Counted from the first letter of the stretch, positions 3,381-33,320 are shown. The stretch is DNA of 64,000 nucleotides from an archaeon (GCA_029258755.1 JAPDKC010000020.1:532-64531), one strand, 5' to 3'. Notes: a model not told the origin generated them from the letters alone. Program-made: numbers and translations.

Positions 3381-4403
3381 ATGACATCACACACTAGAAA
3401 GTGGAAGGAAAAGCAAGTAGAGGAAATAAAAAAGATGTTGGATGAAAGCAAGATTGTTGCGATAGCTAGCTTAGAGCGTTTTCCAGCTTCCCACTTGCAG
3501 GAGTTAAAGAAAAAGTTAGCTTCTAAGGCAAAGATAAAGGTCTCGAAAACAAAAGTTATTGCGAGAGCTTTGGCAGAATCCAAGTACAAAGATATTGACT
3601 TCTCAAAATATTTGAGAGGTTCTATAGCGATTATAGTTTCTACTATGGATCCTTTCGAGCTTTACGCTACAATCAAAAAGAACAAAGCAAGTGCGTATGC
3701 GAAAGCAGGCATGGTTGCTGAGCAAGATATAGTGGTGCCAGCTGGCGACACCGGTTTGCCGCCAGGCCCAGATTTGAGCATACTAAAAGCAGCTGGCTTG
3801 CCAGCAATAATGAAAGGCTCTAGCATACAAATTGCAAAAGATACTGTTGTTGCTCGTAAAGGAGAAGTGATAAGTGAGGAAGTAGCAAGCGCATTAGCTA
3901 AACTAGATATAAAGCCCATACAACTAATGTTAAAAGTTTTGGTTGCATGTGATGGAAAATATCTTTATGATGCTAGCGTTCTTGATATAGATACGGAAAA
4001 GTTTGAAAGCGATTTAATAAGCTGCTATCAAAAAGCGTTTAACTTAGCTTTCAATATTGGTTATATAACACCGCAAAACATAGAGCTTTTCATCCAAAAG
4101 GCATTTAGAGAAGCAAAGCAGCTTGCATTGGACGCTAACTATATATCGCCATTAACTCTTCCAGAATTCATAGCTAAAGCCTATAATGCCGCAAACTCCT
4201 TAAGTTCTGTAGTGAAGGTAGATGCTAAGGAAACAGAGCAGCAGCAAGCTGAAGAAAGCACTCAAAACCAGCAAGAGCAAGCAGAAGAACAAAGCAATGC
4301 TAAGCAGACCAACGGGCAGCAAGAGACAAAGGATAAGCAAGCTGAAGAGAATAAGGAACAAGGTGGTTTAGAAGATTCAAACGCTGAAGCACAATCCAAA
4401 TAA
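3381..4403 (+). CDS. rpl10: 50S ribosomal stalk protein L10/P0 (uL10)
   Basis: P0-type L10 with a long acidic Q/E-rich C-terminus and the conserved L1-L10-L12 order. Confidence 0.88.
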   Translation: MTSHTRKWKEKQVEEIKKMLDESKIVAIASLERFPASHLQELKKKLASKAKIKVSKTKVIARALAESKYKDIDFSKYLRGSIAIIVSTMDPFELYATIKKNKASAYAKAGMVAEQDIVVPAGDTGLPPGPDLSILKAAGLPAIMKGSSIQIAKDTVVARKGEVISEEVASALAKLDIKPIQLMLKVLVACDGKYLYDASVLDIDTEKFESDLISCYQKAFNLAFNIGYITPQNIELFIQKAFREAKQLALDANYISPLTLPEFIAKAYNAANSLSSVVKVDAKETEQQQAEESTQNQQEQAEEQSNAKQTNGQQETKDKQAEENKEQGGLEDSNAEAQSK

Positions 4404-4414
4404 AATAAAATGTT

Positions 4415-4753
4415 TTGAATGAAAAAAATATTAAAGAGGTGAAAGAAGTGGAGTACATATATTCTGCATTGCTTCTCCATTCTGCTGGGAAAGAGATTAC
4501 AGAGGAAGCCGTAACAAACGTCCTTAAGGCAGCTGGCATAGAGCCAGATCCGGCAAAAGTAAAGTCGCTAATAGCTTCCCTTAAGGAGGTAAATATTGAG
4601 GAAGCAATCCAAAAAGCAGCAACAGTGCAAGTAGCCCCAGCTGCACCAAGTGCTGAAGCAAAAGAAGAGGAAAAGAAAGAAGAAAAGAAGGAAGAGGAGG
4701 AAAAGAAGACAGAGGAAGAAGCGGCAAGCGGCTTAAGCGCACTCTTTGGCTAA
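4415..4753 (+). CDS. rpl12: 50S ribosomal stalk protein L12/P1
   Basis: '[19 protein letters not shown]', an acidic [12 protein letters not shown] hinge and the archaeal/eukaryotic stalk terminus 'GLSALFG'. The true start may instead be the GTG at 4448 (VEYIYS..), which follows 'agaggtga'. Confidence 0.85.
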
Positions 4754-6050: not shown

Positions 6051-8459
6051 ATGCTTTCTAGAAAACTTCTGTTAGCTTTTTTCCTTCTTCTAACGCTTAC
6101 TAGGTGCTTTGCAGTAATTGAGGAAGCGTCCATCCCTATATTCGCTGTTACAGAGTCGGAAGATAGAGCAGTAAGAGCGGAACTTACTATTAAGATAGTT
6201 CCTGGAAGCGGAAAAATTTGGAGCTCTGTAGGTCCTTTAGTAGGAACCTCAACCCAACATACGGAAAAGATTGCTGTGGAGCTTGCGAAAAATTACTCTG
6301 ACGAGGTAGAGAAGTACGATTATATGTTCGATATAAATTCTACTGCCAGCGTTGTTGAGGGCCCAAGCGCGGGAGCAGCGATGGCATTGCTTTTAATCAC
6401 AATGCTTCAGGACAAAAAGCTGCCTGGGTATGTTGCGATAACAGGGCAAATAAGTGAAGATGGCTCAATAGGTTCTGTTGGAGGAATATTCCTAAAAGCA
6501 GAAAAAGCTGCTCAAACAGGAATAAAGCTCTTTATGATTCCCAAAGGAGATGCTTATCAAACACATCGTTTTCCAGATGGTATAAAGACAGTTAACCTCG
6601 TTGAATACGCTCCTAAAGAATGGGGGATGAAGGTTGTAGAGGTATCAAACATAGATGAAGCATTGGCTTATGCTTTTACTCCTTTGGAGAAGATAGATAT
6701 AAATACTCAAGTTAAGGAGCAAAAACCTTTCGCTCCAGAAGTAATACCGCTTAAAGACAAACTTAAACCAATGAAATCACTTACTTCAAAATACATTGAA
6801 AAAGCAGAGGAAACAATTGATGCCGCAAAAGATGCCCTAAACAACAGCAAGCTTTTGGATCAGCAGGTAATATCCGTACTGCTTCAATCTCTTACAAATT
6901 CCCAAAAAAATATAGAAAAAGCCAAACTTCTGTATGAGGCCAATTATTTGTATTCAGCAGCAAACTATGCTTTTGTTTCCCTAGTTAATGCACGTCTTGT
7001 TAAGGATTTGGCAGAGAACCCTTCGTTGCTAAAATCAGATTCGGTATTGCTAAAAAGCTTAGTATCGCAGCTTGGTGAGAAGATTGAAGAACTTTCTAAA
7101 CAGCTCGATAAGTTCTACACTATTGAGCGATTTGAATGGCTTGTTGCTGCAAAGGAAAGGATCTCTTGGGCAGAACTCAACTTAAACAAAATAAAAAATA
7201 TAAAAACAGTAATAATCACCAACACCGGCATAACTGAGGGCATATCTGTGCCTCTGAAGAATTTGCAGGACTATGAATTCGCTTTGGGGTGGTATGAAAT
7301 AGCAAGCGATTTTTATAACATAGCGAAAGAAGCTAATGACAAATTCCAGGCGGAGCCATTCCTTGAAGAAGAGGCAAGAATGTATATAATAAAAGCAGAA
7401 AATTGTGTAGCGACATTATACGAGGAAGATGAGGACATAAGCAGACGCTTAGAAGCTGCAAGATTCGAATTTAAAAAGGAATGGTATGACGCAGCTCTTT
7501 TCGATGCAGCTAGCGCGTATGGGCTGTGCTCCTCTCATGAGGAAACTAAAGGCAAATCTCTATCGGAGCTTATCTCTACACTGGAAGAAAAAATAACCGC
7601 AGTCAAAAACAAATTGCTACATGATAAGGGTGCTGTCTGGCCAGAGCTTTACATAACCCATGCAGAATATTTCCTAAAATCAGCAAAGCATTACAAAGAA
7701 GAAAAAGCTTTTTCTAAAGCGATAGAAGATGCTAAAGCAGGTATAAGTTTGGCCCTATTTGCAAAAGAACTCTTAGATGCCTCTTTGGATGCGAGAAACA
7801 AACTTGTAAAAATCTCACGCAAACCATTTGCTGAAGAGCTACCTGAAATAACTCCAGAGTTGCCATCACCAGGCGAACAAGAAAGCCCGATTAATAAGTT
7901 TGCCATGAATGTGGGCATTGTAATTTCGATCCTGATACTTCTGTGCTTTTTAGTAGCAATACTTATTCTATTTATCAAAAGGCAGGATTACGAAAAAGCA
8001 GCAGGCGAGAAAGAAGTGTTAAAAGGAAAAATAAACACGATAGAAAATATGTTAAAAGAACTCGATAAAAGATTCATGCGCAATAAAATAACAAAGCAAG
8101 AGTACCTTTCAAGGAAAAATGTTTATGAGAAGCAGCTTCGCGCCTTAAAGGAAGAACTCTCAAGAAAATCAAAACATCTGCTTGAGATAGATAGAATTAG
8201 GGCACAGCTGAAGGAAGTCCAATTTATGTTGGATCAAATAAAAGCCCAGTATGAAGCAGGCGAACTTCTCGAGGAGGATTACCGAAAAGCATTTTCAAAA
8301 TATCTCAGCAAACTAGAGAAACTCAAAGAGGAGCTTGCAGTTGAGGAGCAAGAACTAGCGCAAGAAAAGAAAAAGATAGAAAAACTTGCAAACTTTCCGA
8401 AGAGAGGGAAACAAAAGGTACTTAGCAAAGCCTACAAAAGTAGAAGTAAAAGGCGTTAA
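6051..8459 (+). CDS. Secreted, membrane-anchored protein with an N-terminal Lon-type S16 peptidase domain, a long helical region, a single TM helix and a C-terminal coiled-coil basic tail; it has no AAA+ module
   Basis: Signal-peptide-like 'MLSRKLLLAFFLLLTLTRCFA'. Lon proteolytic-domain motifs 'VVEGPSAGAAMALLLITML' (catalytic Ser context) and 'ITGQISEDGSIGSVGGIFLKAEKAAQTGIKLFMIPKGD' (catalytic Lys context). TM helix 'MNVGIVISILILLCFLVAILILFI' is encoded at about 7907-7978. No Walker motifs are present. Confidence 0.6.
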   Translation: MLSRKLLLAFFLLLTLTRCFAVIEEASIPIFAVTESEDRAVRAELTIKIVPGSGKIWSSVGPLVGTSTQHTEKIAVELAKNYSDEVEKYDYMFDINSTASVVEGPSAGAAMALLLITMLQDKKLPGYVAITGQISEDGSIGSVGGIFLKAEKAAQTGIKLFMIPKGDAYQTHRFPDGIKTVNLVEYAPKEWGMKVVEVSNIDEALAYAFTPLEKIDINTQVKEQKPFAPEVIPLKDKLKPMKSLTSKYIEKAEETIDAAKDALNNSKLLDQQVISVLLQSLTNSQKNIEKAKLLYEANYLYSAANYAFVSLVNARLVKDLAENPSLLKSDSVLLKSLVSQLGEKIEELSKQLDKFYTIERFEWLVAAKERISWAELNLNKIKNIKTVIITNTGITEGISVPLKNLQDYEFALGWYEIASDFYNIAKEANDKFQAEPFLEEEARMYIIKAENCVATLYEEDEDISRRLEAARFEFKKEWYDAALFDAASAYGLCSSHEETKGKSLSELISTLEEKITAVKNKLLHDKGAVWPELYITHAEYFLKSAKHYKEEKAFSKAIEDAKAGISLALFAKELLDASLDARNKLVKISRKPFAEELPEITPELPSPGEQESPINKFAMNVGIVISILILLCFLVAILILFIKRQDYEKAAGEKEVLKGKINTIENMLKELDKRFMRNKITKQEYLSRKNVYEKQLRALKEELSRKSKHLLEIDRIRAQLKEVQFMLDQIKAQYEAGELLEEDYRKAFSKYLSKLEKLKEELAVEEQELAQEKKKIEKLANFPKRGKQKVLSKAYKSRSKRR

Positions 8460-11419
8460 GCACCTTCTAAAATCTTCTGTTCCAAATCTAGCCCTATAAC
8501 GCTTGATTTATCCTTGCTCATAGTCACGCCGATTATTTGGTCAGCTTTCTTTATAACAGCCTGGTTGTGGGTTATAACAATAATCTGGGCTTTTTTCGAG
8601 AATTCTTTCAAAGCGCTAGCTACTTTTTCAGAATTTATCTCATCCAGAGCTGCATCGGCTTCATCCAAAACATAGAGAGGTGCTGGCTTGTAGAGGAGTA
8701 TTGCGAAAATAAATGTAAGTGCTGTAAGAGTTTTTTCGCCACCGCTCATGCTATCTATAGATTGAAGCGCTTTGCCTTTATGTTTCGCCTCTATTATAAG
8801 GCCTGCGGAGGTGGGCTCATTATAATCGGTAAGCTTTAGTTCTGCATAACCTCCAAAAAATTTGTAAAACATGTTTGAAAAATTCTTTCTAATAGCGTTA
8901 AAGCATTCCATAAAAACCTCATTTCTTTTTATCTCTATCTTCCTTATCATATCAAGCACAGCTTCTCTTTCTTCCTCGAGTTTTTGTATCTTTTCCTTCA
9001 CCTCGAGCAGGGAAGCTTCTTCTTCCTTTATTGCCTCCGCTGCTTTTAGATTCACAGGCCCTATCGCTGCAAGCTCCTTTTCAACTTTTGCAAGCTCTTT
9101 CTTCAATTCCTTCGCGGTTAGTTCTGTTAGCAATTGTGTTTTTGGAAGATTTTTCAATTCCTCCTCCAAATCGGTAAGCCTTACCTCACTCTTCCCTATT
9201 TCCAAGCGAGCATTGTTTATCTCTTTTTCAATGAGCTTTTTCTCATTTTCCAAAGATTCCAGTTCGCTGCTCAATTTTTCAGCATGGATAAGCATGTTCT
9301 CCTTCTTATTGATAAGTCCTTTTATCGATTCTGCCCTTTCATTCCTCTTTATCTCAAGCTTTGCCAATCTTTCTTTAAACTTTTGTAGTGCCTTATTCCT
9401 TTCCTCGATGAATGTTTCGTTTTCCCTCTTTTCTTCAGCCAGCTTTTGTATCTTCGTCCTTATTTTTTTAATCTCTTCATCTAAAGATTTGATACGCTGC
9501 TCAGATGATGTGAGATTGTGCTCTAAAAGCTCTTTTTTGTGCTTTAGTTCCGCAAGCCTTTCTCTTAACAGTGTTGCCTCATCGCTTTTAAGTTTTCCTA
9601 ATTCTTCGAGCAAAAGTGCTTTTCTTTCCTTTATTTTGATCCTCTCGTTTTCGAGTTTATTTAGCTCTGCTTTGATAGATTCCAAATCAATTAGAGAGTG
9701 TTTTTCCTTCTCTAAAAGAATTGAAAGTTCCTTAAGTTCTTTTGTCAGTTCCTTGTAAGCTGAGCATTCCCTGCTAAGCTCATTTAGCTTTTCCAAATCA
9801 GCTTCAGCAGAAGCTATCTTCTCAGAAAGTTCTCGCAAAGCTTTCTTGGTTTCATTAAGCTTTTGCTCTAAGAACACTAAACCCTTCTTTTTCTTCTCCA
9901 GCAATGACTTTCTTTTAGCTTCGTCCAAAGTACTTTCGCATAGAGGGCATTTGGTTTTAACCTTCTCAAGACTGCTTAACGCTTCTTTTGTTTGCTCAAT
10001 CTTTGTTAGTATTTCCCTTTCATTCCCTATTAGCTCTTTTTCTCGGGCTTTTAAGGAACGCAATAATGAATCCAAATTTTTTCCCTCTAAAACCTGCATT
10101 TGCTCCTTTAGTTTGCTTAGCTTATCTCTCTGTTTTGTTAGTTCCTCTATTCTTCTTTCAAGCTCCGCTATTCTTTCTTTCCTCATTTCATTTTCTTTTT
10201 CCGCACTACTCAGCAATTTTTGTTTTTTAACCAATTCTCTGTTTATTTCCTCGATTTGTTCCTCAAGAGCCTTAAGCTTGTTTTCAATTCCTAACGCTTT
10301 TTCCTCAGAATCTTTTGCTGCTTCCTCTACTTCAATAAGCTTGCTTTCCACCTCTTCGAGCTCTTTTCCTATAGATGCAATCTTTTGCTTGTATTCCTCT
10401 ATCTTTTTTTCCTCAACCTTTTTTTGTTCGAGCGCGTTTTTAAGTTCTTCTGCCAACTCTTCCTCCTGCTGATCCAATCTCTCAATAAGCTCTTTTCTTG
10501 CGATTATCTGTTGTTCTGTAACCTTAAGCTTGCTGTTTAACTCCTCTATTTGCTTTCCATACTCTTCGAATAGCTTACTTTGCTCTTCCATTATTTTATT
10601 CGCTAAAGCATCGATCTTTTCCTTGAGCTCCTTAATCCTTTTCTTTATTTTATTCGCTAAGCCCTCTTTTTTCTCAAGAAGCTCTAAACTTTTTTTCAGC
10701 TTTTGCTTGTTTCGCTCAATCTCAGCATTTATAGAATCTATTTCTTTCTTAAGCATTGTTGCTTTAATCGCATCCCTGCGCTTAACAAGCTTTTGGTATC
10801 GCTCTGCCTGTTCGCGTTCCCTTTGAAGCTCCTCCAAGCGCTTTAATCTTTCTCCCAGAACCAGATTTACATCCTTTATCTTTTCATTCACCTTGTCCAA
10901 ATTTTTTTGCGCTTCTTCGCGTTTCAATTCAAATTCTTTTATGCCTGCAAGCTCATCTATTATTGTTCTCCTCTGCTCAGGGCTCATTTCGATTATTCTT
11001 GTAACATCGCCTTGAGCTATAAAATTATGGGCATTCCTTAAGCCGAGCTCTTTAACAAGCGAGACAAGCTCGCTAAGAGATTTTTGCTCATCGTTAATTC
11101 TACAAATGCTCTTTCCTTTCATATCTATAGTTCTGCTCAATGTAATTGTTTCCTTCCCTCTTTTTATTTTAAGTTCCACTTTTCCGTATTTTTCTCTAGC
11201 GTTGCTGTTAATCAAATCCGTTATTCGCGATGCGCGCAAGCTTCTCATAGATGTTTCGCCGAGAACAAAAAGCAGAGAATCGAGTATATTGCTTTTTCCT
11301 GAGCCGTTGGGTCCCACTATTACAGTAAACCCTTTCCTAAATGGTATATTTGCTTTTTTAAATGATTTAAAGTTCTTAAGCTTCAGCTCCTTAAGCTCTA
11401 CCATAGGAATCGCTGTCAT
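8456..11419 (-). CDS. smc: SMC-like chromosome-organisation ATPase with a central CxxC (zinc-hook-like) motif in place of a hinge domain
   Basis: N-terminal 'FRKGFTVIVGPNGSGKSNILDSLLFVLG' (SMC-type Walker A). C-terminal 'MSGGEKTLTALTFIFAILLYKPAPLYVLDEADAALDE' plus 'QIIVITHNQAVIKKADQIIGVTM' (SMC-type signature, Walker B and D-loop). The roughly 650 aa between them is predicted to be continuous coiled coil with no globular hinge. Mid-protein 'KVKTKCPLCESTLDE' is encoded at about 9935-9949. Confidence 0.75.
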   Translation of the reverse strand: MTAIPMVELKELKLKNFKSFKKANIPFRKGFTVIVGPNGSGKSNILDSLLFVLGETSMRSLRASRITDLINSNAREKYGKVELKIKRGKETITLSRTIDMKGKSICRINDEQKSLSELVSLVKELGLRNAHNFIAQGDVTRIIEMSPEQRRTIIDELAGIKEFELKREEAQKNLDKVNEKIKDVNLVLGERLKRLEELQREREQAERYQKLVKRRDAIKATMLKKEIDSINAEIERNKQKLKKSLELLEKKEGLANKIKKRIKELKEKIDALANKIMEEQSKLFEEYGKQIEELNSKLKVTEQQIIARKELIERLDQQEEELAEELKNALEQKKVEEKKIEEYKQKIASIGKELEEVESKLIEVEEAAKDSEEKALGIENKLKALEEQIEEINRELVKKQKLLSSAEKENEMRKERIAELERRIEELTKQRDKLSKLKEQMQVLEGKNLDSLLRSLKAREKELIGNEREILTKIEQTKEALSSLEKVKTKCPLCESTLDEAKRKSLLEKKKKGLVFLEQKLNETKKALRELSEKIASAEADLEKLNELSRECSAYKELTKELKELSILLEKEKHSLIDLESIKAELNKLENERIKIKERKALLLEELGKLKSDEATLLRERLAELKHKKELLEHNLTSSEQRIKSLDEEIKKIRTKIQKLAEEKRENETFIEERNKALQKFKERLAKLEIKRNERAESIKGLINKKENMLIHAEKLSSELESLENEKKLIEKEINNARLEIGKSEVRLTDLEEELKNLPKTQLLTELTAKELKKELAKVEKELAAIGPVNLKAAEAIKEEEASLLEVKEKIQKLEEEREAVLDMIRKIEIKRNEVFMECFNAIRKNFSNMFYKFFGGYAELKLTDYNEPTSAGLIIEAKHKGKALQSIDSMSGGEKTLTALTFIFAILLYKPAPLYVLDEADAALDEINSEKVASALKEFSKKAQIIVITHNQAVIKKADQIIGVTMSKDKSSVIGLDLEQKILEGA

Positions 11420-12210
11420 CTGGCTTTAGAGAAAGTAAGATAGTAATCAGTTATCGTTCCTAGGGAAAATGCAAAAATGAAGGTATTAAAAGCAGCATAT
11501 AGCAAGAGCACAGCAAGTGTATTTTCAAACATACTTAATACAAAGTATTGAAGAGCAACTATTACTAGTGTTATAAGCGCTAATACCAAACCTAGCGCTA
11601 TGGACTGCCAGAAAAATTTTCCTGTAAAATGCCAGCTGGCTTGTAGGGCTTTTCTTACATTGGCCTTTTGAGCAATCGCCGGCAAAGAAAACATAAACAG
11701 GCGCATAGCGGCTATAGAGATAAAGAGGGCAAAAAATATCAAAGCAAGGAAACCAAAGAAGAAATTAAAACCAAAGAGGTTGATAAGCGCTAAACTAATA
11801 ATCCCAGCTGCAGCAAAGAAAACGCCAAGAACGATTAAAAGCCCCAAAGAGCTTCCTATAGAGCTCAAAACAAAGCCAAGGGCTTTGCTTAGGTTCTTTC
11901 GTTTTCTTTCTAAAATAACACACTTTGAGTAATAGATCCCGATAAGAATGCTAAACCATAAATTAATTAATGAGGCAGAGAACATAACCAGAAGATTCTG
12001 GAATTTCGCCTTTATAAGAAACAATAATGTTGCAATAAAATCTGCTTCGATAATATTGGAGTAAAGAATTTTGTCGGCTATAGCCTCAACAAATGCTTGC
12101 AAGAAGAAAAAGAATAAGAACGCGCTTATAATTGCTCCTACAAACGGCACTATCAGAATGTATGGTTTTTTTGCTATAAGTTTTAGGGAATTGAGTATAG
12201 AGGCCAGCAT
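11416..12210 (-). CDS. Polytopic membrane protein, uncharacterised; its stop overlaps the downstream smc-like start by 4 nt
   Basis: Six to seven hydrophobic helices. Translationally coupled to the SMC-like gene (ATGA-type overlap at 11416-11419). Confidence 0.5.
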   Translation of the reverse strand: MLASILNSLKLIAKKPYILIVPFVGAIISAFLFFFFLQAFVEAIADKILYSNIIEADFIATLLFLIKAKFQNLLVMFSASLINLWFSILIGIYYSKCVILERKRKNLSKALGFVLSSIGSSLGLLIVLGVFFAAAGIISLALINLFGFNFFFGFLALIFFALFISIAAMRLFMFSLPAIAQKANVRKALQASWHFTGKFFWQSIALGLVLALITLVIVALQYFVLSMFENTLAVLLLYAAFNTFIFAFSLGTITDYYLTFSKAR

Positions 12211-12275: not shown

Positions 12276-13241
12276 TTATTCCAAGATCTCCACATGGTCT
12301 ATCAAGCCATCGCTGTCCAAATCTAGGCCTTCGACAACATGAGCGCAGCTACGCTTGTTAAACCTATTCGGCTTTATTATCTCCTCTGTGTTTTGAATTA
12401 AAGCCAAAACAGCCGCTTTTGTTCCAGCATTCCTTTTTCCCGCTATAAACAATATAGCCTTATCCTCGAAGTAAGGGTGCTTTATCTTCTCTATTATCCC
12501 AACAGCGTCTTCCGTGTATTCTTTCTCGGAGTTCTCGCTTATTATGAGCCAGTGAGCGTTCTTCTGCTCAAACCTTATGGAAAGATGTTCGTTCACTTCA
12601 GCGCTTGTTTTATTTGTTATTGGACCTCCGATAACTATAATATTATCATTTACTTTGCTTATATGGGGAAGCATCGTATCTAAAAACACGTAAGGGTAAC
12701 GAATGCTTCTGCAGAGGGTTCCGAGAAAGCCAGCAAGTTCTGTAGCTATGTGAGCATCTCTGGCCCTTGCTTTAAATACGCCGTGCGAATCTGGGGCGCC
12801 AACAACAATCTTCGCGTTGAGCTCGTTGTTTTCTATAAATGGATGGAAGAATTCTTGCAAGGGCTTTGGCATCCCTTTTTCCATGCCCTGAAGCTTTGAT
12901 ATGCTTGCAGAATCAAGTTGAGGAACAAAAGCAAAGCAGCTAACGTTTGCTTTGTAGTATTTCGCTAAGCCGCCTCTTTTTTCCTCGCGCTTTGTAAGCT
13001 TCACTAAGCCAGCGTTTTTGAGTTTATTTATATAATAATAAACCTCTTGTTGCTGCAATCCAAGTTTCTTTGCGATGTCTGCAGGATAGCTTTCCTTTTT
13101 GGAGAGCTCTTTAAATATAAGCCAGCATTTTTCATTTAGCAATGGTTTCAGCTTTTCTGTTGATTCTAGTACTTCAGCATCACACACGAAATACCTATTA
13201 TCTTTTTGAAAGGATAAACGAGCAAGCAATCTTACCACCAT
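12276..13241 (-). CDS. Winged-helix (ArsR/MarR-like) domain protein with an uncharacterised C-terminal domain
   Basis: 'SYPADIAKKLGLQQQEVYYYINKLKNAGLVKLTKRE' is a wHTH recognition helix plus wing. The C-terminal roughly 200 aa has no recognised motifs. Same strand as, and upstream of, the membrane-protein/SMC-like pair. Confidence 0.5.
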   Translation of the reverse strand: MVVRLLARLSFQKDNRYFVCDAEVLESTEKLKPLLNEKCWLIFKELSKKESYPADIAKKLGLQQQEVYYYINKLKNAGLVKLTKREEKRGGLAKYYKANVSCFAFVPQLDSASISKLQGMEKGMPKPLQEFFHPFIENNELNAKIVVGAPDSHGVFKARARDAHIATELAGFLGTLCRSIRYPYVFLDTMLPHISKVNDNIIVIGGPITNKTSAEVNEHLSIRFEQKNAHWLIISENSEKEYTEDAVGIIEKIKHPYFEDKAILFIAGKRNAGTKAAVLALIQNTEEIIKPNRFNKRSCAHVVEGLDLDSDGLIDHVEILE

Positions 13242-16508: not shown

Positions 16509-17131
16509 AAATAACTATTGAGAGTATTCTTGAGGAGGCTAAAAAGCTTATTGATGACCCCGAGCCAAAATTCTGGGAACTTATAAACAAGCTGGAAAAG
16601 GTTGAGATAAAAACAGAACTCCTTGGCGAAATAGAGGATAACGTTGTAATAAAAGGTGATCTTTACTTAGGTAAAAATTCTGTGATAAAATCTGGAACGA
16701 GGATAGAAGGAAATGTATATATAGGTGAAAACTGCACCATAGGACCAAATGCTTATTTTCGTGGCAATGTTATCATTGCCAACAACTGCAAAATCTCGTA
16801 CTCGGAAATAAAAAACTCCATAATACTTTCACATACAAATGTTCCGCATTTCTCTTATGTAGGAGATTCTATATTGGGGGAAGATGTAAATCTCGGTGCA
16901 GGTACGAAGATAGCAAACCTGCGCTTAGATGAAAAAAATATTCAAGTAGAGATTTGCGGAAAAAAGTTTGACAGCAATAGAAGAAAGCTGGGTGCCCTTA
17001 TAAAATCCGGCACAAAAACTGGAATAAACGTTTCCATAAACTGTGGCGTTGTAATTGGAAAAAATTGCTTTATATATCCAGGGGCATTTGTTAAAGAAAG
17101 CATAGCCGATAATACTATTTTTACGCGCTAA
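16505..17131 (+). CDS. Hexapeptide-repeat (left-handed beta-helix) acetyltransferase, resembling the GlmU C-terminal domain
   Basis: Repeated [LIV]G-x4 hexapeptides ('IGENCTIGPNAYFRGNVIIANNCKI'). No N-terminal nucleotidyltransferase domain. Translationally coupled to glmM. Confidence 0.7.
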   Translation: MKITIESILEEAKKLIDDPEPKFWELINKLEKVEIKTELLGEIEDNVVIKGDLYLGKNSVIKSGTRIEGNVYIGENCTIGPNAYFRGNVIIANNCKISYSEIKNSIILSHTNVPHFSYVGDSILGEDVNLGAGTKIANLRLDEKNIQVEICGKKFDSNRRKLGALIKSGTKTGINVSINCGVVIGKNCFIYPGAFVKESIADNTIFTR

Positions 17132-19850
17132 GAAATTCAAGCTCTTTTCCAGTAAAACCATCGATAAAAATGCGCCTTTTCTTCCCGGTTTTTATATTCT
17201 CCACAATTCCTTCATAGACAGGCCAGTAAATCTCTTTTATAGATGTTACCACGAGCTTCTTCCATATCTTTTGTAGAAGTTCACGCACCTCTCTTTTCGA
17301 ATATCTTTCTTTTTCCTTCATGATAGCTTGTGCAGTAACCAAAGGAAGTTTTTGCAGAGAAAGATGCAGGCTGTGCAAAGGTGTTCTTGGCAGGTCAAAC
17401 TTCTTTTTTATACAATAAAGGATAACACCATTTTTCTCCATCTTTTTAACAAGATCGTTTTCAATAAGCTTCTTTAATATTCTTTTTACCTTGTTTTCAT
17501 CCATAAACGCCTTCTTGCTTACCTGGGATGCACTTAGCGGGGTTGTCAAAAAGTTCAGTACCTTTATCTCATTATCGCTTAAACCATAGAGATCCTTAAG
17601 CCCCTTGGATTCTACAAAGCCTTCTTTAAAATGGAGAAATTCTCCAGTGTAAGAATTTACAAAAAGCACACTTTGCCTAAACATATTCTTTTCGTTAAAA
17701 TAGTTGAATTCGACCTTATAAACAGGTATATACTTGAGGTTAGTTTCTATTAATCGCTCGCTTCCGGGAAGCAAACCAAAGAGCTTGCTAACCTTTTTCC
17801 TAATTTTAGATTCAGCCTTTTCTTTTGCATATCTTATTGGAAAGGCTAAAAGCTCAAGTTTTTCTTCTGCCTCCTTTTCAGGGATTTCAACGGGCTTTTC
17901 TTCCTCAACTTTTTTCATTTCCGGTTCTGACACAGCAGCAGGCTTCTTTTCCTCCAGAAAAACCATGCCTTCTTCCTCATTAACTTTGGCTCCCTTGTTT
18001 TCTAATTCTAATAGCACATCCTGAAGCTCAAGGTTTGAGCTATACTTGGTATTTAACGAGTTCAACGTTCTGCTTATTTCCGCAAGCTTTGCCCTTCCGT
18101 CCCTCTTCAATCTTGCCCAGTACATAGAGCTTATAAGCTTTAGCACTTGCTCATCGCTTAGCTCAACTTTTGTTTCGATTGTTTCGGTTTCCCTGCCTTC
18201 GTGCTGGCTCATTCTAGGCCTTACCTTCATTATGAAAGCCCTGCTTGTTTCTTCTCTGCGGTCACCAACCAAAGCAACGCCTGTAGGCAAAGTCCTTATA
18301 AAAGCCCCTGCCTTGAATTTGTGCGGAATTATTGCAGGTGTTCGCTTATAAACAGCCTTTATATCATCGTTGAAAACAAGCTTGTGAACAATTATTATAT
18401 CAAGCTGGCTTAGTACCTTAGTATCTATTGCCGATGGCTGCTGTGTTGCAAAAACCAGAGAGCAGCCAGGCCTGCGACCCTGCTTTACATATTCTATTAA
18501 AGCATCGCTTGCTGCTGTTTTGATATTTCCACTCGGAATGAGCGTATGTGCTTCATCTATAAAAAGCCACGTTGGCGGAATTTGGATCTCGAGAAGCTCT
18601 TCTGCTGAGCTTTCAAACCGCTTAGCAGCTTCTTTCCTTGTAGCTATCTTTCTTGCAGCTAATATGCGTCTGGCCAGAATTCCTATTACAAGTGCAGTAA
18701 CATTATCATCCAAAAAACTTGTGTCTATAATTGTAAGCTGACCTTCTCTGCTAAGTTCGCTAAGCGGTGTGCCTTCTATATCAAAAATGCCCCATGATTT
18801 AGCAGCCTCAAACCTACTTGTTAGAGCTCTTATAGAATCCACTTTATAGCCGCGGTCTCTAGAATTAAGTTCAGCATCATTTTCTAGGCAGAATATGATA
18901 TCATCAAGTGAATAATCCTTAGTGCCTTTAATTCGCTCTTTATCTATGGTAATATATCCTTTCTCAACTTTCTCTAAAGCTTTTTCTAGCAGCAAACCCG
19001 TTGGGCTAAAGCGATCTATTCCAAATGTTAGGCACCAATCCTGAGCTGTAAGCATTGAGGGCTTTATGGAGAATGTTGCATCATAGGTGCCTTTAGGCGT
19101 CTGAGACTCCATCCCCTTTGGAATAAAAACAACTATATTATCAAGCCCTTTTGGCTCAAGCCCCCATTTTTTTAGCTCCTCAACCTCTTTTTCTTCGCGA
19201 TTGGCATATCTCATGCTCCAGAAGACGCCGACAGGATCAACAACAATTATGCCAACATCGGGGTTTTTTAGCGCTAGCTCCTCAGCAATCACGCCAAGCA
19301 CATAACTTTTTCCGCTGCCACGAGCACCGCAAACAAAAACAACATGAGGATTTAAACTATCTAACAAGATATCCTTTTCTTTATAGCCAGGTTCGTGTAC
19401 GCGGCCTATAAAAAGAGCTGCTTGTGATCCATACTTTTCATATACGGATTTTTTTCTGCCAATAAACGCTCGGCCTTCCTCATCTTCAAGGAATTTTAGT
19501 TCAGGAAGTATAATATCGCTTCCCTCCGCAACTACAACCTTCCCTTTATCCTCCTTCTTAGCTTTTTTCTTATCTCCTTCTTTTTTCTCCCCTTTTTTAT
19601 CTTCCTTAATTTCTTCTCCCCTTTCCTCTTCAAGAACGGCTTCCTCTTTTATGTTTTTTTCTTTTTCCGGCTCAGCGTATATGCTTTCGCTTTCTTTACT
19701 TTCCTTTTCTATTTTTTCTTTTTCCTTTTTTGCAATCTCACTCAGCTTTTTCCTAGCTTCTTTCAGCTCCTCATCTAAGCCAAACACTTCCTCAAATAAG
19801 TCCTGCTCTTCACTATCCTTCTCTATAACAACCCTTTTCTTCTCGGCCAT
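17121..19850 (-). CDS. HerA/FtsK-superfamily P-loop ATPase (DUF87-like) with a K/E-rich disordered N-terminus and a C-terminal extension of about 340 aa containing a winged-helix-like segment
   Basis: Walker A 'VFVCGARGSGKSYVLGV' and Walker B 'WLFIDEAHTLIP'. HerA-type 'SLVFATQQPSAIDTKVLSQLDIIIVHKLVFNDD'. The N-terminal 110 aa is KE low-complexity. Confidence 0.65.
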   Translation of the reverse strand: MAEKKRVVIEKDSEEQDLFEEVFGLDEELKEARKKLSEIAKKEKEKIEKESKESESIYAEPEKEKNIKEEAVLEEERGEEIKEDKKGEKKEGDKKKAKKEDKGKVVVAEGSDIILPELKFLEDEEGRAFIGRKKSVYEKYGSQAALFIGRVHEPGYKEKDILLDSLNPHVVFVCGARGSGKSYVLGVIAEELALKNPDVGIIVVDPVGVFWSMRYANREEKEVEELKKWGLEPKGLDNIVVFIPKGMESQTPKGTYDATFSIKPSMLTAQDWCLTFGIDRFSPTGLLLEKALEKVEKGYITIDKERIKGTKDYSLDDIIFCLENDAELNSRDRGYKVDSIRALTSRFEAAKSWGIFDIEGTPLSELSREGQLTIIDTSFLDDNVTALVIGILARRILAARKIATRKEAAKRFESSAEELLEIQIPPTWLFIDEAHTLIPSGNIKTAASDALIEYVKQGRRPGCSLVFATQQPSAIDTKVLSQLDIIIVHKLVFNDDIKAVYKRTPAIIPHKFKAGAFIRTLPTGVALVGDRREETSRAFIMKVRPRMSQHEGRETETIETKVELSDEQVLKLISSMYWARLKRDGRAKLAEISRTLNSLNTKYSSNLELQDVLLELENKGAKVNEEEGMVFLEEKKPAAVSEPEMKKVEEEKPVEIPEKEAEEKLELLAFPIRYAKEKAESKIRKKVSKLFGLLPGSERLIETNLKYIPVYKVEFNYFNEKNMFRQSVLFVNSYTGEFLHFKEGFVESKGLKDLYGLSDNEIKVLNFLTTPLSASQVSKKAFMDENKVKRILKKLIENDLVKKMEKNGVILYCIKKKFDLPRTPLHSLHLSLQKLPLVTAQAIMKEKERYSKREVRELLQKIWKKLVVTSIKEIYWPVYEGIVENIKTGKKRRIFIDGFTGKELEFLSA

Positions 19851-31721: not shown

Positions 31722-33320
31722 ATGCCAAATAAAAAGACGATTAAAGAATTTTTAAAACCAGATTGGAAAAAGATTGTTCTGAGCTTTTTGCTGCTTTTAG
31801 CTTGTTTTTTGTTTTTCGTTTCAGTAACTGCTTTGCCCATGCCAGTCTCCATGATTCCTGTTATTACAGGCTTGTTCTTGGCACTCCTTTTGCCCTTTGC
31901 CGTGGTTTATAATCTGTTGTCTTTTGGTATTCCGGATATTGTTGCATTAATTATAGCTTTTAGTTTGCATGTTTTCTATTTTTATGTCGTTTCCTGCTTT
32001 TTAGTGTGCTTATTGGCACGCCTAAAGAATTTGATAGTGTCCATAAAATGGAGTAAATGGGATGCAAAAACACTTGGTGTTCTGGCGAGTATAGCAGTGA
32101 TTGGAATCGCTGTTTATGGCTTTCTAAATCTTGGTTGGACCGACATATTTATTCCGACTGCTGATGACAGCGGAGCAACGCCAGAAGGGATTACAGAGGT
32201 GGTTAAGGCAAATAACCAGTTTGCTATCAAGCTTTACTCGGAAATAAGCAAAGATTCTAATGGAAACATATTTTTCTCTCCTTGGAGTGTATCAACTGCA
32301 ATGGCAATGGTGTATGAAGGTGCTCGGGGCCGGACGGCAGATGAAATAAGATCCGTTTTTCAGTTTCCTGAAGATAATGACAGAAGAAGGTTTTCCTTTG
32401 CGAGACTACTGAATACAGTGAACAAGACTAGCGGAAGATACGAATTTCATGTTGCGAATGCAATATGGTTGCAGAAGGAATATCCTTTTTTAGAGGAATA
32501 CAAAAATATAATATGGAGATATTATTTAGGTGAAATCAGGAATGTAGATTTTGTAAATGATGCTGCCAGCTCAAGTAATGAGATAAATAACTGGGTTGCA
32601 GACCATACAAATAACAAAATAAGAGAAATTGTGCGTCCAGAGATGTTCAACGAACTTACCCGTGCTGTGCTTACGAATGCGATATATTTCAAAGGAAAAT
32701 GGAAATACCAGTTTGATAAGCAACACACAAAACCGGAGGATTTTATCCTTGGTTCTGGAGAAAAGGTTAAGGTTCCAATGATGCAGCTTATGGATTCAGA
32801 TTTGGAATTCAATTATGCGGAAATGGATGGTGTGCAGATACTTGAAATAAAATATCAGGGTGACAAAATATCAATGCTGGTTCTCCTGCCAAGAACTAAC
32901 ATACACTACTTAGAATCAATACTGACTGAAGAAAGGCTTCAGAAGTGGCGAAACAGCCTTAAACCCGAAATAGTTTACATATACATGCCCAAATATAAAT
33001 TTGAAACCTCTTACTCATTAACAGACTATTTAAAAGATATGGGAATGCATTCACCTTTTGAATGGCCTGGTGCAGATTTCTCTGGAATTGATGGAACAAA
33101 GACGCTTTACATTAGCGATATCTTGCATAAAGCATACGTAGATGTCTGTGAGGAAGGCACAGAGGCAGCAGCGGCAACTACCATTCTTGTTACGAAAGGA
33201 GCAGCACCCAAGCACCCAGTAGTATTTAGAGCAGACCGTCCGTTTATATTCATAATACAGGAAAGCAAAACGGGAAACATTCTTTTCATTGGCAGGGTAA
33301 TGCAGCCTGTAGGTTATTGA
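31722..33320 (+). CDS. Serpin (serine protease inhibitor) with an N-terminal multi-TM membrane anchor
   Basis: About 140 aa with 3-4 hydrophobic helices, then a serpin core 'NIFFSPWSVSTAMAMVYEGARGRT', hinge/RCL 'EEGTEAAAATTILV' and C-terminal 'FRADRPFIFIIQESKTGNILFIGRV'. Confidence 0.8.
   Translation: MPNKKTIKEFLKPDWKKIVLSFLLLLACFLFFVSVTALPMPVSMIPVITGLFLALLLPFAVVYNLLSFGIPDIVALIIAFSLHVFYFYVVSCFLVCLLARLKNLIVSIKWSKWDAKTLGVLASIAVIGIAVYGFLNLGWTDIFIPTADDSGATPEGITEVVKANNQFAIKLYSEISKDSNGNIFFSPWSVSTAMAMVYEGARGRTADEIRSVFQFPEDNDRRRFSFARLLNTVNKTSGRYEFHVANAIWLQKEYPFLEEYKNIIWRYYLGEIRNVDFVNDAASSSNEINNWVADHTNNKIREIVRPEMFNELTRAVLTNAIYFKGKWKYQFDKQHTKPEDFILGSGEKVKVPMMQLMDSDLEFNYAEMDGVQILEIKYQGDKISMLVLLPRTNIHYLESILTEERLQKWRNSLKPEIVYIYMPKYKFETSYSLTDYLKDMGMHSPFEWPGADFSGIDGTKTLYISDILHKAYVDVCEEGTEAAAATTILVTKGAAPKHPVVFRADRPFIFIIQESKTGNILFIGRVMQPVGY

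Follow-up and report, generated by a model that had tools for sequence, protein, structure and literature searches.

A conserved HerA-clade ATPase with accessory domains in Iainarchaeota and its possible role as a chromosome translocase

A HerA-clade ATPase and its accessory modules

The window analysed here is a 64,000-nucleotide stretch of DNA (GCA_029258755.1 JAPDKC010000020.1:532-64531) from a DPANN archaeon of the phylum Iainarchaeota ('Candidatus Diapherotrites'). The list of open reading frames (ORFs) and their translation place on its minus strand, at 17121–19850, a gene that begins with ATG and encodes a HerA-clade ATPase of 909 amino acids (aa) with accessory modules at both its N- and C-termini, an assignment drawn from the ORF, from Pfam and from more than 120 full-length orthologues. 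The original prediction had described a HerA-type ATPase of nearly twice the size of archaeal HerA, as Pfam and the length of the protein bear out. The Walker A and Walker B motifs that it listed are present, as is the segment 'FATQQPSAIDTKVLSQLDIIIVHKL', exactly as quoted, and all three occupy invariant columns in an alignment of 30 sequences. The base composition of the gene is the same as that of the rest of the window, and a scan for promoters and terminators gave nothing above shuffled expectation.

The ATPase core spans residues 109–556 (18183–19526; these and all other coordinates within the gene refer to the minus strand) and was delimited by Pfam, a PDB profile search and Foldseek. 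Pfam recognizes the DUF87/HerA central domain at residues 173–396 (E 3.6e-17; 63.6 bits against a cut-off of 23.2) and HerA_C at residues 425–540 (E 8.8e-6; 25.1 bits against a cut-off of 22). Walker A, G175-ARGSGK-S182 (19305–19328), lies in invariant columns and is the site of intein insertion in relatives, while Walker B, L429-FIDEAH-435 (18546–18566), falls in a segment in which W428, L429, D432, E433, A434 and H435 are invariant. The segment A468-TQQPSA-474 (18429–18449; invariant at A468, T469, Q470, Q471, P472 and A474) aligns with the matching segment of the anti-phage HerA 8xau and contains the 'TQxP' motif, which we take to be typical of ATPases of the FtsK-HerA superfamily. At the end of the core stands the sequence R544-PRMSQHEGR-E554 (18189–18221), invariant in Iainarchaeota and present in Asgard archaea in the form IRPRxSxHAGRE, which serves below as the signature of the clade.

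All 10 matches in the PDB profile search are HerA-family proteins, with sequence E-values for the core in the range 1e-9 to 1e-6; they include the anti-phage protein 8xau (4e-9), Sulfolobus HerA (4d2i, 2e-6), Thermococcus HerA, TdpA and YjgR. Foldseek likewise returned HerA structures for all of its top 50 matches, with 4d2i first at E 1e-11, from a model of the ATPase that is poor (predicted local distance difference test score, pLDDT, of 61). The motor domain of FtsK was absent from both the profile and the fold matches, and Pfam FtsK_SpoIIIE (PF01580) gave an E-value of 0.18, with 11.6 bits against a cut-off of 24. VirB4 fared no better (TIGR00929, 13.5 bits against a cut-off of 643), and the TrwB models also went without a match, so that the domain search found no good match to VirB4/TrbE or to FtsK, families a best match to which the original prediction had named as grounds for refuting it. 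In PADLOC the best match was mad8 (2e-21), followed by anti-phage HerA models down to 1e-8, all confined to the core region. We place the core in the HerA clade of the FtsK-HerA superfamily, and with neither FtsK nor VirB4.

The protein is nevertheless not a canonical HerA. The NCBIfam equivalogs for HerA, NF040937 and NF040819, scored 37.9 and 28.8 bits against cut-offs of 800 and 970, and aligned only around Walker B. Sulfolobus HerA (4d2i) and the HerA of the Thermococcus HerA-NurA complex (9x1m) are its best structural and profile matches and share with it the DUF87/HerA P-loop core, the Walker motifs and TQxP; by analogy with them, the window protein is probably a ring translocase. Its sequence is, however, only marginally similar to theirs, and it lacks a NurA/Mre11 operon. 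In the place of the canonical HAS barrel of about 100 aa it appears to have a short beta segment, within about 55 structured residues that precede the P-loop strand and are modelled at a pLDDT of 41–65. It also adds about 110 aa of peptide and linker at the N-terminus and 353 aa at the C-terminus, which together with the core make it about twice the size of archaeal HerA. The protein represents a distinct, uncharacterized archaeal subfamily marked by RPRxSxHxGRE.

Near the N-terminus lies a short linear motif, D16-LFEEVF-G23 (19782–19805), which is conserved in the 30-sequence alignment with the consensus D[LIM]F[DE][DE][VA][FL]G. A strict regular expression picked out the motif in 43 of 84 orthologues, and many of the others contain relaxed versions of it. 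It occurs once in the window and is essentially absent among about 1,100 other ORFs of related loci; a search of the termini of these ORFs led us to reject the idea that the peptide is a hub-binding motif shared by several proteins. The motif is followed by a charged, K/E-rich linker of low complexity at residues 24–108 (19527–19781), recognized by its charge content and by its variable length among orthologues. Residues 41–108 are 66% charged, which substantiates the KE-rich N-terminus of the original prediction. Among orthologues the N-terminal extension can be anything between 43 and 417 aa long, with a median of 220, as expected for a flexible spacer. We propose from these sequence features that the peptide may act as a tether, holding the motor to a cellular partner by way of the flexible linker.

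The 353 aa that follow the core, predicted as an extension of about 340 aa, were modelled confidently (mean pLDDT 87.4) and contain a pair of winged helices and a pair of PepSY-like repeats. The winged-helix-like domain that comes first, WH1 (residues 566–631; 17958–18155), has the topology H-E-H-H-E-E and a pLDDT of about 93–97 in the AlphaFold model m7c0569e72bc0. It is separated by an acidic disordered linker (residues 636–663; 17862–17945; pLDDT below 50, variable in length and sequence in the alignment) from the first PepSY-like alpha+beta repeat, PS1 (residues 667–747; 17610–17852), which was delimited on the model and on Pfam PepSY matches in orthologues. Then follow a winged helix-turn-helix (wHTH) of the TrmB/MarR type, WH2 (residues 751–814; 17409–17600), and the second PepSY-like repeat, PS2 (residues 827–897; 17160–17372), seen in the model. 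Pfam TrmB (PF01978) matches residues 752–813 at E 1.1e-6 (28.8 bits against a gathering score of 25.6), spanning the 'LSDNEIKVLNFLTT...' segment for which a wHTH-like fold had been predicted, and the same model matches in 18 of 24 orthologues. Pfam PepSY (PF03413) is also found in 18 of the 24, with a best E-value of 2.9e-8, and a comparison of PS1 with PS2 by hhalign (probability 87.5%, E 3.6e-6) identifies them as homologous repeats.

When the C-terminal module was compared by Foldseek, the wHTH superposed on ArsR/SmtB/MarR structures with a root mean square deviation of 1.0–2.0 Å, and nothing in the PDB or among viral models matched beyond this single domain. The array as a whole is therefore without a solved counterpart, and it does not align to the standard HerA-associated domains. 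WH2 resembles TrmB, MarR and ArsR regulators, from which DNA binding can be predicted, and PS1 and PS2 are PepSY-like by the matches in orthologues; unlike in those proteins, the domains here form a wH-linker-PepSY-wHTH-PepSY array joined to a motor ATPase. As far as is known, most PepSY domains are extracytoplasmic; the window protein has neither a signal peptide nor a membrane segment (the maximum Kyte-Doolittle value over 19 residues is 1.39). PS1-WH2-PS2 carries a net charge of +20 in the window protein, and the mean net charges among orthologues are +4.8 for PS1, +4.0 for WH2 and +2.0 for PS2. We infer that the array would bind or orient DNA, or else dock partner proteins. Of the effector or specificity module that had been suggested for this region, a true wHTH and a possible DNA-binding function stand, whereas no effector domain, such as a nuclease or Sir2, was found. 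Two proteins, P0235 and P0211, looked like stand-alone versions of the C-terminal module; P0235 proved to be a gene cut by the end of its contig.

Distribution and chromosomal surroundings

A homology search recovered more than 120 full-length proteins of 850–1100 aa with 50–79% identity to the window protein. Relatives occur in 276 species-level genomes of GTDB, which was scanned with one genome per species, and the best 80 are nearly all from assemblies named Iainarchaeum, Diapherotrites or AR10. Residues 118–555 are extremely conserved, with 105 invariant columns in the 30-sequence alignment, and a 13-sequence alignment of the core has a mean column identity of 77%. The prediction that the protein is an orphan thus holds for its lack of an adjacent partner, described below, but not for its family, which is large and conserved. 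The Iainarchaeota-type gene was also found with its usual neighbours on three contigs (L023, L025 and L052) deposited within metagenome-assembled genomes of Chloroflexi, Falkowbacteria and Peregrinibacteria; these are probably mis-binned archaeal contigs.

More distant relatives fall into several architectures. An HMMER scan of 1.8 billion cluster representatives returned 283 clusters at E<=1e-30. ATPases of about 750–860 aa with a wHTH occur in Hadarchaeota, Theionarchaea and Methanofastidiosa, with core identities of 53–61%, and forms of about 870–1020 aa in Asgard archaea (Hel-, Loki-, Hod-, Odin- and Jord/Freyarchaeota), with core identities of 45–50%. Proteins of about 1200–1650 aa have the core fused to DUF835, SAP and MarR domains (core identity 40–47%); P0163, P0173 and similar proteins of other archaea (1180–1650 aa) are of this kind, the MarR-type domain being a wHTH. 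In three others (P0180, P0207 and P0226) a region bearing a papain-like 'GTRGTCVAF' motif precedes the core on its N-terminal side. Forms that stand alone, of about 430–490 aa, are 31–38% identical. A rough neighbour-joining tree of the cores places Iainarchaeota, Hadarchaeota and Theionarchaea together, with the Asgard clade nearby, and sets the small stand-alone forms of about 430 aa apart as an outgroup.

At least 11 relatives carry an intein, always at one site directly after S182 within Walker A, and recognizable by LAGLIDADG/Hint matches in Pfam (the carriers noted are P0064, P0084, P0110, P0117, P0120, P0124, P0131, P0133, P0140, P0143, P0184 and P0269). They include proteins of the Iainarchaeota type and more distant ones, among them a protein from Nanoarchaeia. 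Conserved sites in essential ATPases of replication and repair are where inteins tend to accumulate. Because of its conservation, its presence in 276 genomes, its native base composition, its ordinary metabolic neighbours and the inteins in Walker A, we conclude that the gene behaves like a housekeeping gene in Iainarchaeota, strongly conserved in ordinary chromosomal surroundings. The original prediction had named defence and conjugation among the settings of such motors; a sporadic stand-alone system of that kind is not supported here.

In the window the gene is flanked, as predicted, by the convergent genes glmS, glmM and a hexapeptide acetyltransferase, and by a divergent HIT gene. Clustering of the ORFs of 84 loci revealed no recurrent adjacent partner and no effector gene. 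Neither NurA nor Mre11 (Metallophos) is encoded in the neighbourhood within the window or recurs in the 84 clustered loci, and type IV secretion genes are absent from the neighbourhood and from the related loci. One gene of the neighbourhood, at 12276–13241 on the minus strand, encodes a 321-aa protein with an N-terminal wHTH of the ArsR/TrmB type and an S-layer-like C-terminus (S_layer_C, E 3.4e-12), and it adjoins glmS in 21 loci. Just upstream of the HerA-like gene, MazG-like genes occur in five Iainarchaeota loci (L029, L036, L071, L074 and L094) and dUTPase-like genes in six (L032, L034, L046, L053, L067 and L073), both kinds encoding nucleotide pyrophosphatases.

Two further genes of the minus strand are conserved syntenic neighbours of the HerA-like gene. 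The first (11416–12210) encodes a multi-pass membrane protein of 264 aa with at least five hydrophobic segments. The second (8456–11419), 5.7 kb downstream of the HerA-like gene, encodes a protein of 987 aa that combines SMC heads with a central CPxC zinc hook. The two genes overlap by 4 nucleotides and are described as co-transcribed. Of the 35 loci whose downstream flank reaches 9.5 kb or more, 19 have the pair 1.4–8 kb downstream of the HerA-like gene, always on the same strand. The convergent genes that lie between the HerA-like gene and the pair vary, being either the hexapeptide acetyltransferase, glmM, glmS and a wHTH gene, or genes for a wHTH protein and ribosomal protein L44e. The prediction that no NurA, Mre11 or Rad50 partner is adjacent therefore stands in its literal form, but a zinc-hook protein of the SMC type is encoded not far away on the same strand.

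The heads of the 987-aa protein match TIGR02169 (1e-163) and, in the PDB, Smc (2e-89) far better than Rad50 (8e-19). It has no hinge, and the CPxC zinc hook lies at its exact centre (residues 491–494) and is kept in 22 of 22 orthologues. We therefore rejected its identification as a Rad50 on the grounds of its SMC-type heads, retaining the Rad50-type zinc hook as an oddity. The gene upstream of it was considered as a kleisin or an Mre11 and rejected, since its product is the multi-pass membrane protein. Such a hybrid of SMC heads and zinc hook, paired with a membrane protein, seems unusual. It is possible, though unproven, that the pair are partners of the HerA-like ATPase.

Asgard relatives and ESCRT-III genes

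The most informative result of the analysis concerns the genomic context of the Asgard relatives. Four of the five Asgard loci examined have the HerA-like gene between two Snf7 (ESCRT-III) genes, all on one strand and with intergenic gaps of 47–159 nucleotides. The trio was found in Helarchaeota (L087:9283-13457), Lokiarchaeota (L089:7346-11555) and Hodarchaeota (L173:7282-11534), in each case with Vps4 adjoining; at the fourth Asgard locus (L088:1762-7280) an extra 333-aa gene precedes the second Snf7 gene, and the upstream flank is short there and yielded no Vps4 call. The exception is an Odinarchaeota contig of 6.9 kb. Two of the trio loci lie inside a full ubiquitin/ESCRT-I/ESCRT-II cluster. 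The four HerA-like ATPases encoded by the trios are of 907–1017 aa and come from different clusters at 50% identity. The Asgard members may belong to the ESCRT operon. This placement, the SMC-like neighbour and the N-terminal peptide had all escaped the original prediction.

This lead appears to be unreported. We found HerA, FtsK, DUF87 or a translocase mentioned neither in the main text of Makarova et al. (PMC11188069 / PMC10936438), a comparative study of ESCRT, nor in that of Hatano et al. (PMC9192718), whose synteny plot colours only genes with diagnostic ESCRT or ubiquitin domains. A limited literature search found no paper that combines 'ESCRT' and 'DUF87', which is absence of evidence only. 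The proteins of the clade are annotated just as 'ATP-binding protein' or 'DUF87 domain-containing protein'.

In the rough tree the Asgard clade is the closest to the Iainarchaeota/Hadarchaeota/Theionarchaea group among the sequences outside it. Its cores are 45–50% identical to that of the window protein, both have the RPRxSxHxGRE signature (RPRxSxHAGRE in the Asgard form), and the proteins (870–1020 aa) are built on the same plan of accessory domain, linker and core. The accessory domains themselves differ. Where the window protein has its peptide and linker, the Asgard proteins have some 250 aa of helical domain containing QxxxGxW-like repeats, and their C-terminal part is an alpha+beta domain, unrelated and about 100 aa long, followed in some members by a coiled tail. 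Homology between the accessory domains of the two clades was considered and rejected, none being detectable. A conserved core with N- and C-terminal adaptors specific to each lineage fits one machine recruited to different cellular structures.

The contexts differ as well, the Asgard genes lying in ubiquitin-ESCRT surroundings, whereas no ESCRT gene was found near the Iainarchaeota gene. A search of metagenomes for more loci of the Asgard type gave mostly stand-alone forms of about 430 aa and genes of the Iainarchaeota type, and no further Snf7 contexts. At one or two genes downstream of the Asgard trio lie a MazG gene and a CBS-domain gene (L087:13744-14094; L089:12146-12448). The locus of a Theionarchaea member has a convergent PRC-barrel gene and Cdc48.

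Candidate functions of the ATPase

We know of no recognized FtsK in archaea. Iyer et al. reportedly proposed in 2004 that a HerA-type pump might fill its role there, and to our knowledge such a HerA-type counterpart has not yet been tied to a specific division-linked gene. The housekeeping character of the window gene, the inteins, the linked SMC-like gene and the position of the sister clade between ESCRT-III genes, taken together, lead us to prefer, tentatively and by analogy, the view that the protein is a housekeeping translocase of double-stranded DNA (dsDNA), acting on the cell's own chromosome around segregation and division or in a closely related DNA transaction. Its HerA-type core would form a ring-shaped, ATP-driven dsDNA pump; the DLFEEVFG peptide, on its long, flexible and charged linker, would tether this motor to a cellular partner; and the positively charged C-terminal module of winged helix, PepSY-like repeat, TrmB-type wHTH and second PepSY-like repeat would bind or orient DNA, or dock partners. 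The role would then be one of segregation, clearance or resolution around division, rather than of defence or conjugation. Hexamer formation, a DNA substrate, tethering by the peptide and coupling to division are all implied by this proposal rather than observed.

The layout of peptide, linker, ring motor and basic wHTH mirrors, by analogy and without homology at the level of the family, the logic of FtsK. FtsK and SpoIIIE belong to the same superfamily and have an analogous arrangement of an anchoring N-terminus, a long linker of low complexity, a ring-shaped motor and, at the C-terminus, a winged helix by which DNA is read. The window protein differs from them in having no match to FtsK_SpoIIIE, no membrane domain and no match to Pfam Ftsk_gamma, and its winged helices are of the TrmB/MarR/ArsR type. 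It is conceivable, although we regard this as somewhat doubtful, that the RPRxSxHxGRE ATPases as a whole are the archaeal functional counterpart of FtsK, recruited by different adaptors: in Asgard archaea as an unrecognized, integral component of the ESCRT-III/Vps4 operon that clears or handles DNA at membrane necks formed by ESCRT, and in Iainarchaeota, which divide by FtsZ, as a DLFxEVFG-tethered motor that cooperates with the membrane-linked zinc-hook SMC.

Several points weigh against a chromosome translocase. The model of the ATPase core is of low quality (pLDDT 61). The ESCRT link concerns the sister clade and not the window protein's own clade, and the N- and C-terminal domains of the Asgard proteins have no detectable homology to those of the window protein. 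When Asgard Snf7, Vps4 and Vps23 were compared by tblastn with the window and 83 Iainarchaeota loci, no ESCRT gene was found; a single AAA match, in L059, was rejected as a PAN-type protein. The window organism itself encodes FtsZ. The linkage to the SMC-like gene is not operonic, holds in about half of the loci and could be inherited gene order alone, which leaves it suggestive only. In Hadarchaeales, Theionarchaea and one other lineage there is no recurrent partner in the contexts examined. Finally, tethering by the N-terminal peptide is a proposal drawn from the sequence, and domains of the wHTH and PepSY-like kinds can serve in contacts between proteins as well.

Four other functions have been weighed against these observations. 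That the protein is a canonical HerA-type helicase of end resection or recombinational repair, working with a NurA-like nuclease and an Mre11/Rad50-like complex encoded elsewhere, we consider unlikely. Its closest solved relatives are indeed HerA proteins, including a HerA-NurA complex, a Rad50-type CPxC zinc-hook protein is linked to it in 19 of 35 loci and could be the Rad50 equivalent, and the MazG- and dUTPase-like genes that recur nearby have a role in nucleotide house-cleaning. Against this stand the absence of NurA and Mre11 genes from the neighbourhood and from the recurrent genes of the 84 loci, HerA equivalog scores of 29–38 bits against cut-offs of 800–970, the SMC rather than Rad50 character of the heads of the linked protein (2e-89 against 8e-19), and the product of the gene upstream of the SMC-like gene, which is a membrane protein instead of Mre11. 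It is rather improbable that the protein is an ATP-dependent DNA-binding regulator or nucleoid remodeller, whose wHTHs would find target sites while the ATPase remodelled protein-DNA complexes or controlled transcription. Two winged helices, one of them of the TrmB/MarR type, a positively charged C-terminal module, relatives in which the same core is fused to SAP and MarR domains, and the annotation of relatives by some sources as transcriptional regulators would all suit such a function; yet the extreme conservation resides in the motor core, the HerA ring-translocase fold is atypical of transcription factors, no regulated operon is conserved beside the gene, and the ESCRT-III sandwich of the Asgard genes is hard to square with transcriptional control.

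The flanking of the Asgard genes by two ESCRT-III genes could also be read as the mark of a motor or scaffold that is directed at protein, acting on cytoskeletal or division polymers (ESCRT-III in Asgard archaea and another in Iainarchaeota), with the winged helices and PepSY-like repeats as docking modules, as the winged helices are in ESCRT-II. Winged helices have been described as building blocks that interact with ESCRT-III (PMC11188069), and the variation of the accessory domains by lineage around a constant core would agree with this function. We nonetheless hold it to be highly unlikely, since the structures closest to the core include HerA complexes with dsDNA, Vps4 already fills the role of remodelling ESCRT-III in the same clusters, and the C-terminal module carries a net positive charge. 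Moreover, as far as is known, characterized HerA-clade motors work on DNA or sense it.

The last of the four, a motor of anti-phage defence or of a mobile element (HerA-Sir2, HerA-DUF4297, a MADS mad8-like protein, or a conjugative VirB4/coupling ATPase), is largely refuted and, in our estimation, very improbable. The core of the window protein is of the same HerA type as that of the Sir2-HerA (Nezha), DUF4297-HerA and TdpAB systems and of mad8; structures of the anti-phage HerA systems are among its top fold matches, and PADLOC models match it, mad8 best. Two distant stand-alone relatives do lie in defence-like islands. One, of 447 aa, is from Helarchaeota (L085:8001-9344) and stands beside PAPS-reductase, phosphodiesterase and STAND-like genes; the other (L174) is on a plasmid of Haloplanus sp. 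HW8-1 (NZ_CP098519, 116089-117258), beside a BREX ATP-binding-domain protein and AddAB-like genes. Both are of the small stand-alone type (about 390–450 aa, 32–34% identity) and fall in the outgroup of the rough tree, apart from the window protein, which suggests that a defence-associated branch of the HerA-like family exists. The window gene has no adjacent effector or partner in 84 loci, its conservation across Iainarchaeota (276 species-level genomes for the family), housekeeping context and native composition are unlike those of defence genes, the protein lacks a transmembrane segment, type IV secretion genes are absent from the neighbourhoods examined, and the VirB4 and FtsK models score below noise. 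The phage collection gave no close homologue, and the plasmid collection a single distant archaeal match, that to Haloplanus at 32% identity.

Whichever function applies, these proteins, whose annotation goes no further than 'DUF87' or 'ATP-binding protein', form an uncharacterized HerA-like subfamily that is strongly conserved and has a novel architecture. If the chromosome translocase is the correct reading, and the motor handles DNA at sites of division or scission, it would supply a part that is missing from archaeal chromosome segregation and from the ESCRT machinery of Asgard archaea, which came before that of eukaryotes. With cultured Asgard strains and heterologous systems available, it would also be a concrete candidate that can be tested. 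Should it turn out to be a repair helicase or a regulator instead, it would still be a well-defined new HerA architecture.

Two other genes of the window may be recorded. The FtsZ gene mentioned above (Tubulin and FtsZ_C domains) lies at 328–1455 on the plus strand, upstream of the gene for ribosomal protein L10 and of a short gene, probably that for L12, the interval 3381–4753 on the plus strand being recorded along with it; at its C-terminus FtsZ ends in the acidic-hydrophobic peptide ...GVLDLGIEFTG. At 31722–33320, also on the plus strand, a gene encodes a serpin of 532 aa, recognized by the Pfam Serpin model at E 4.8e-122 and extended at its N-terminus by some 160 aa, in what is a DPANN archaeon.

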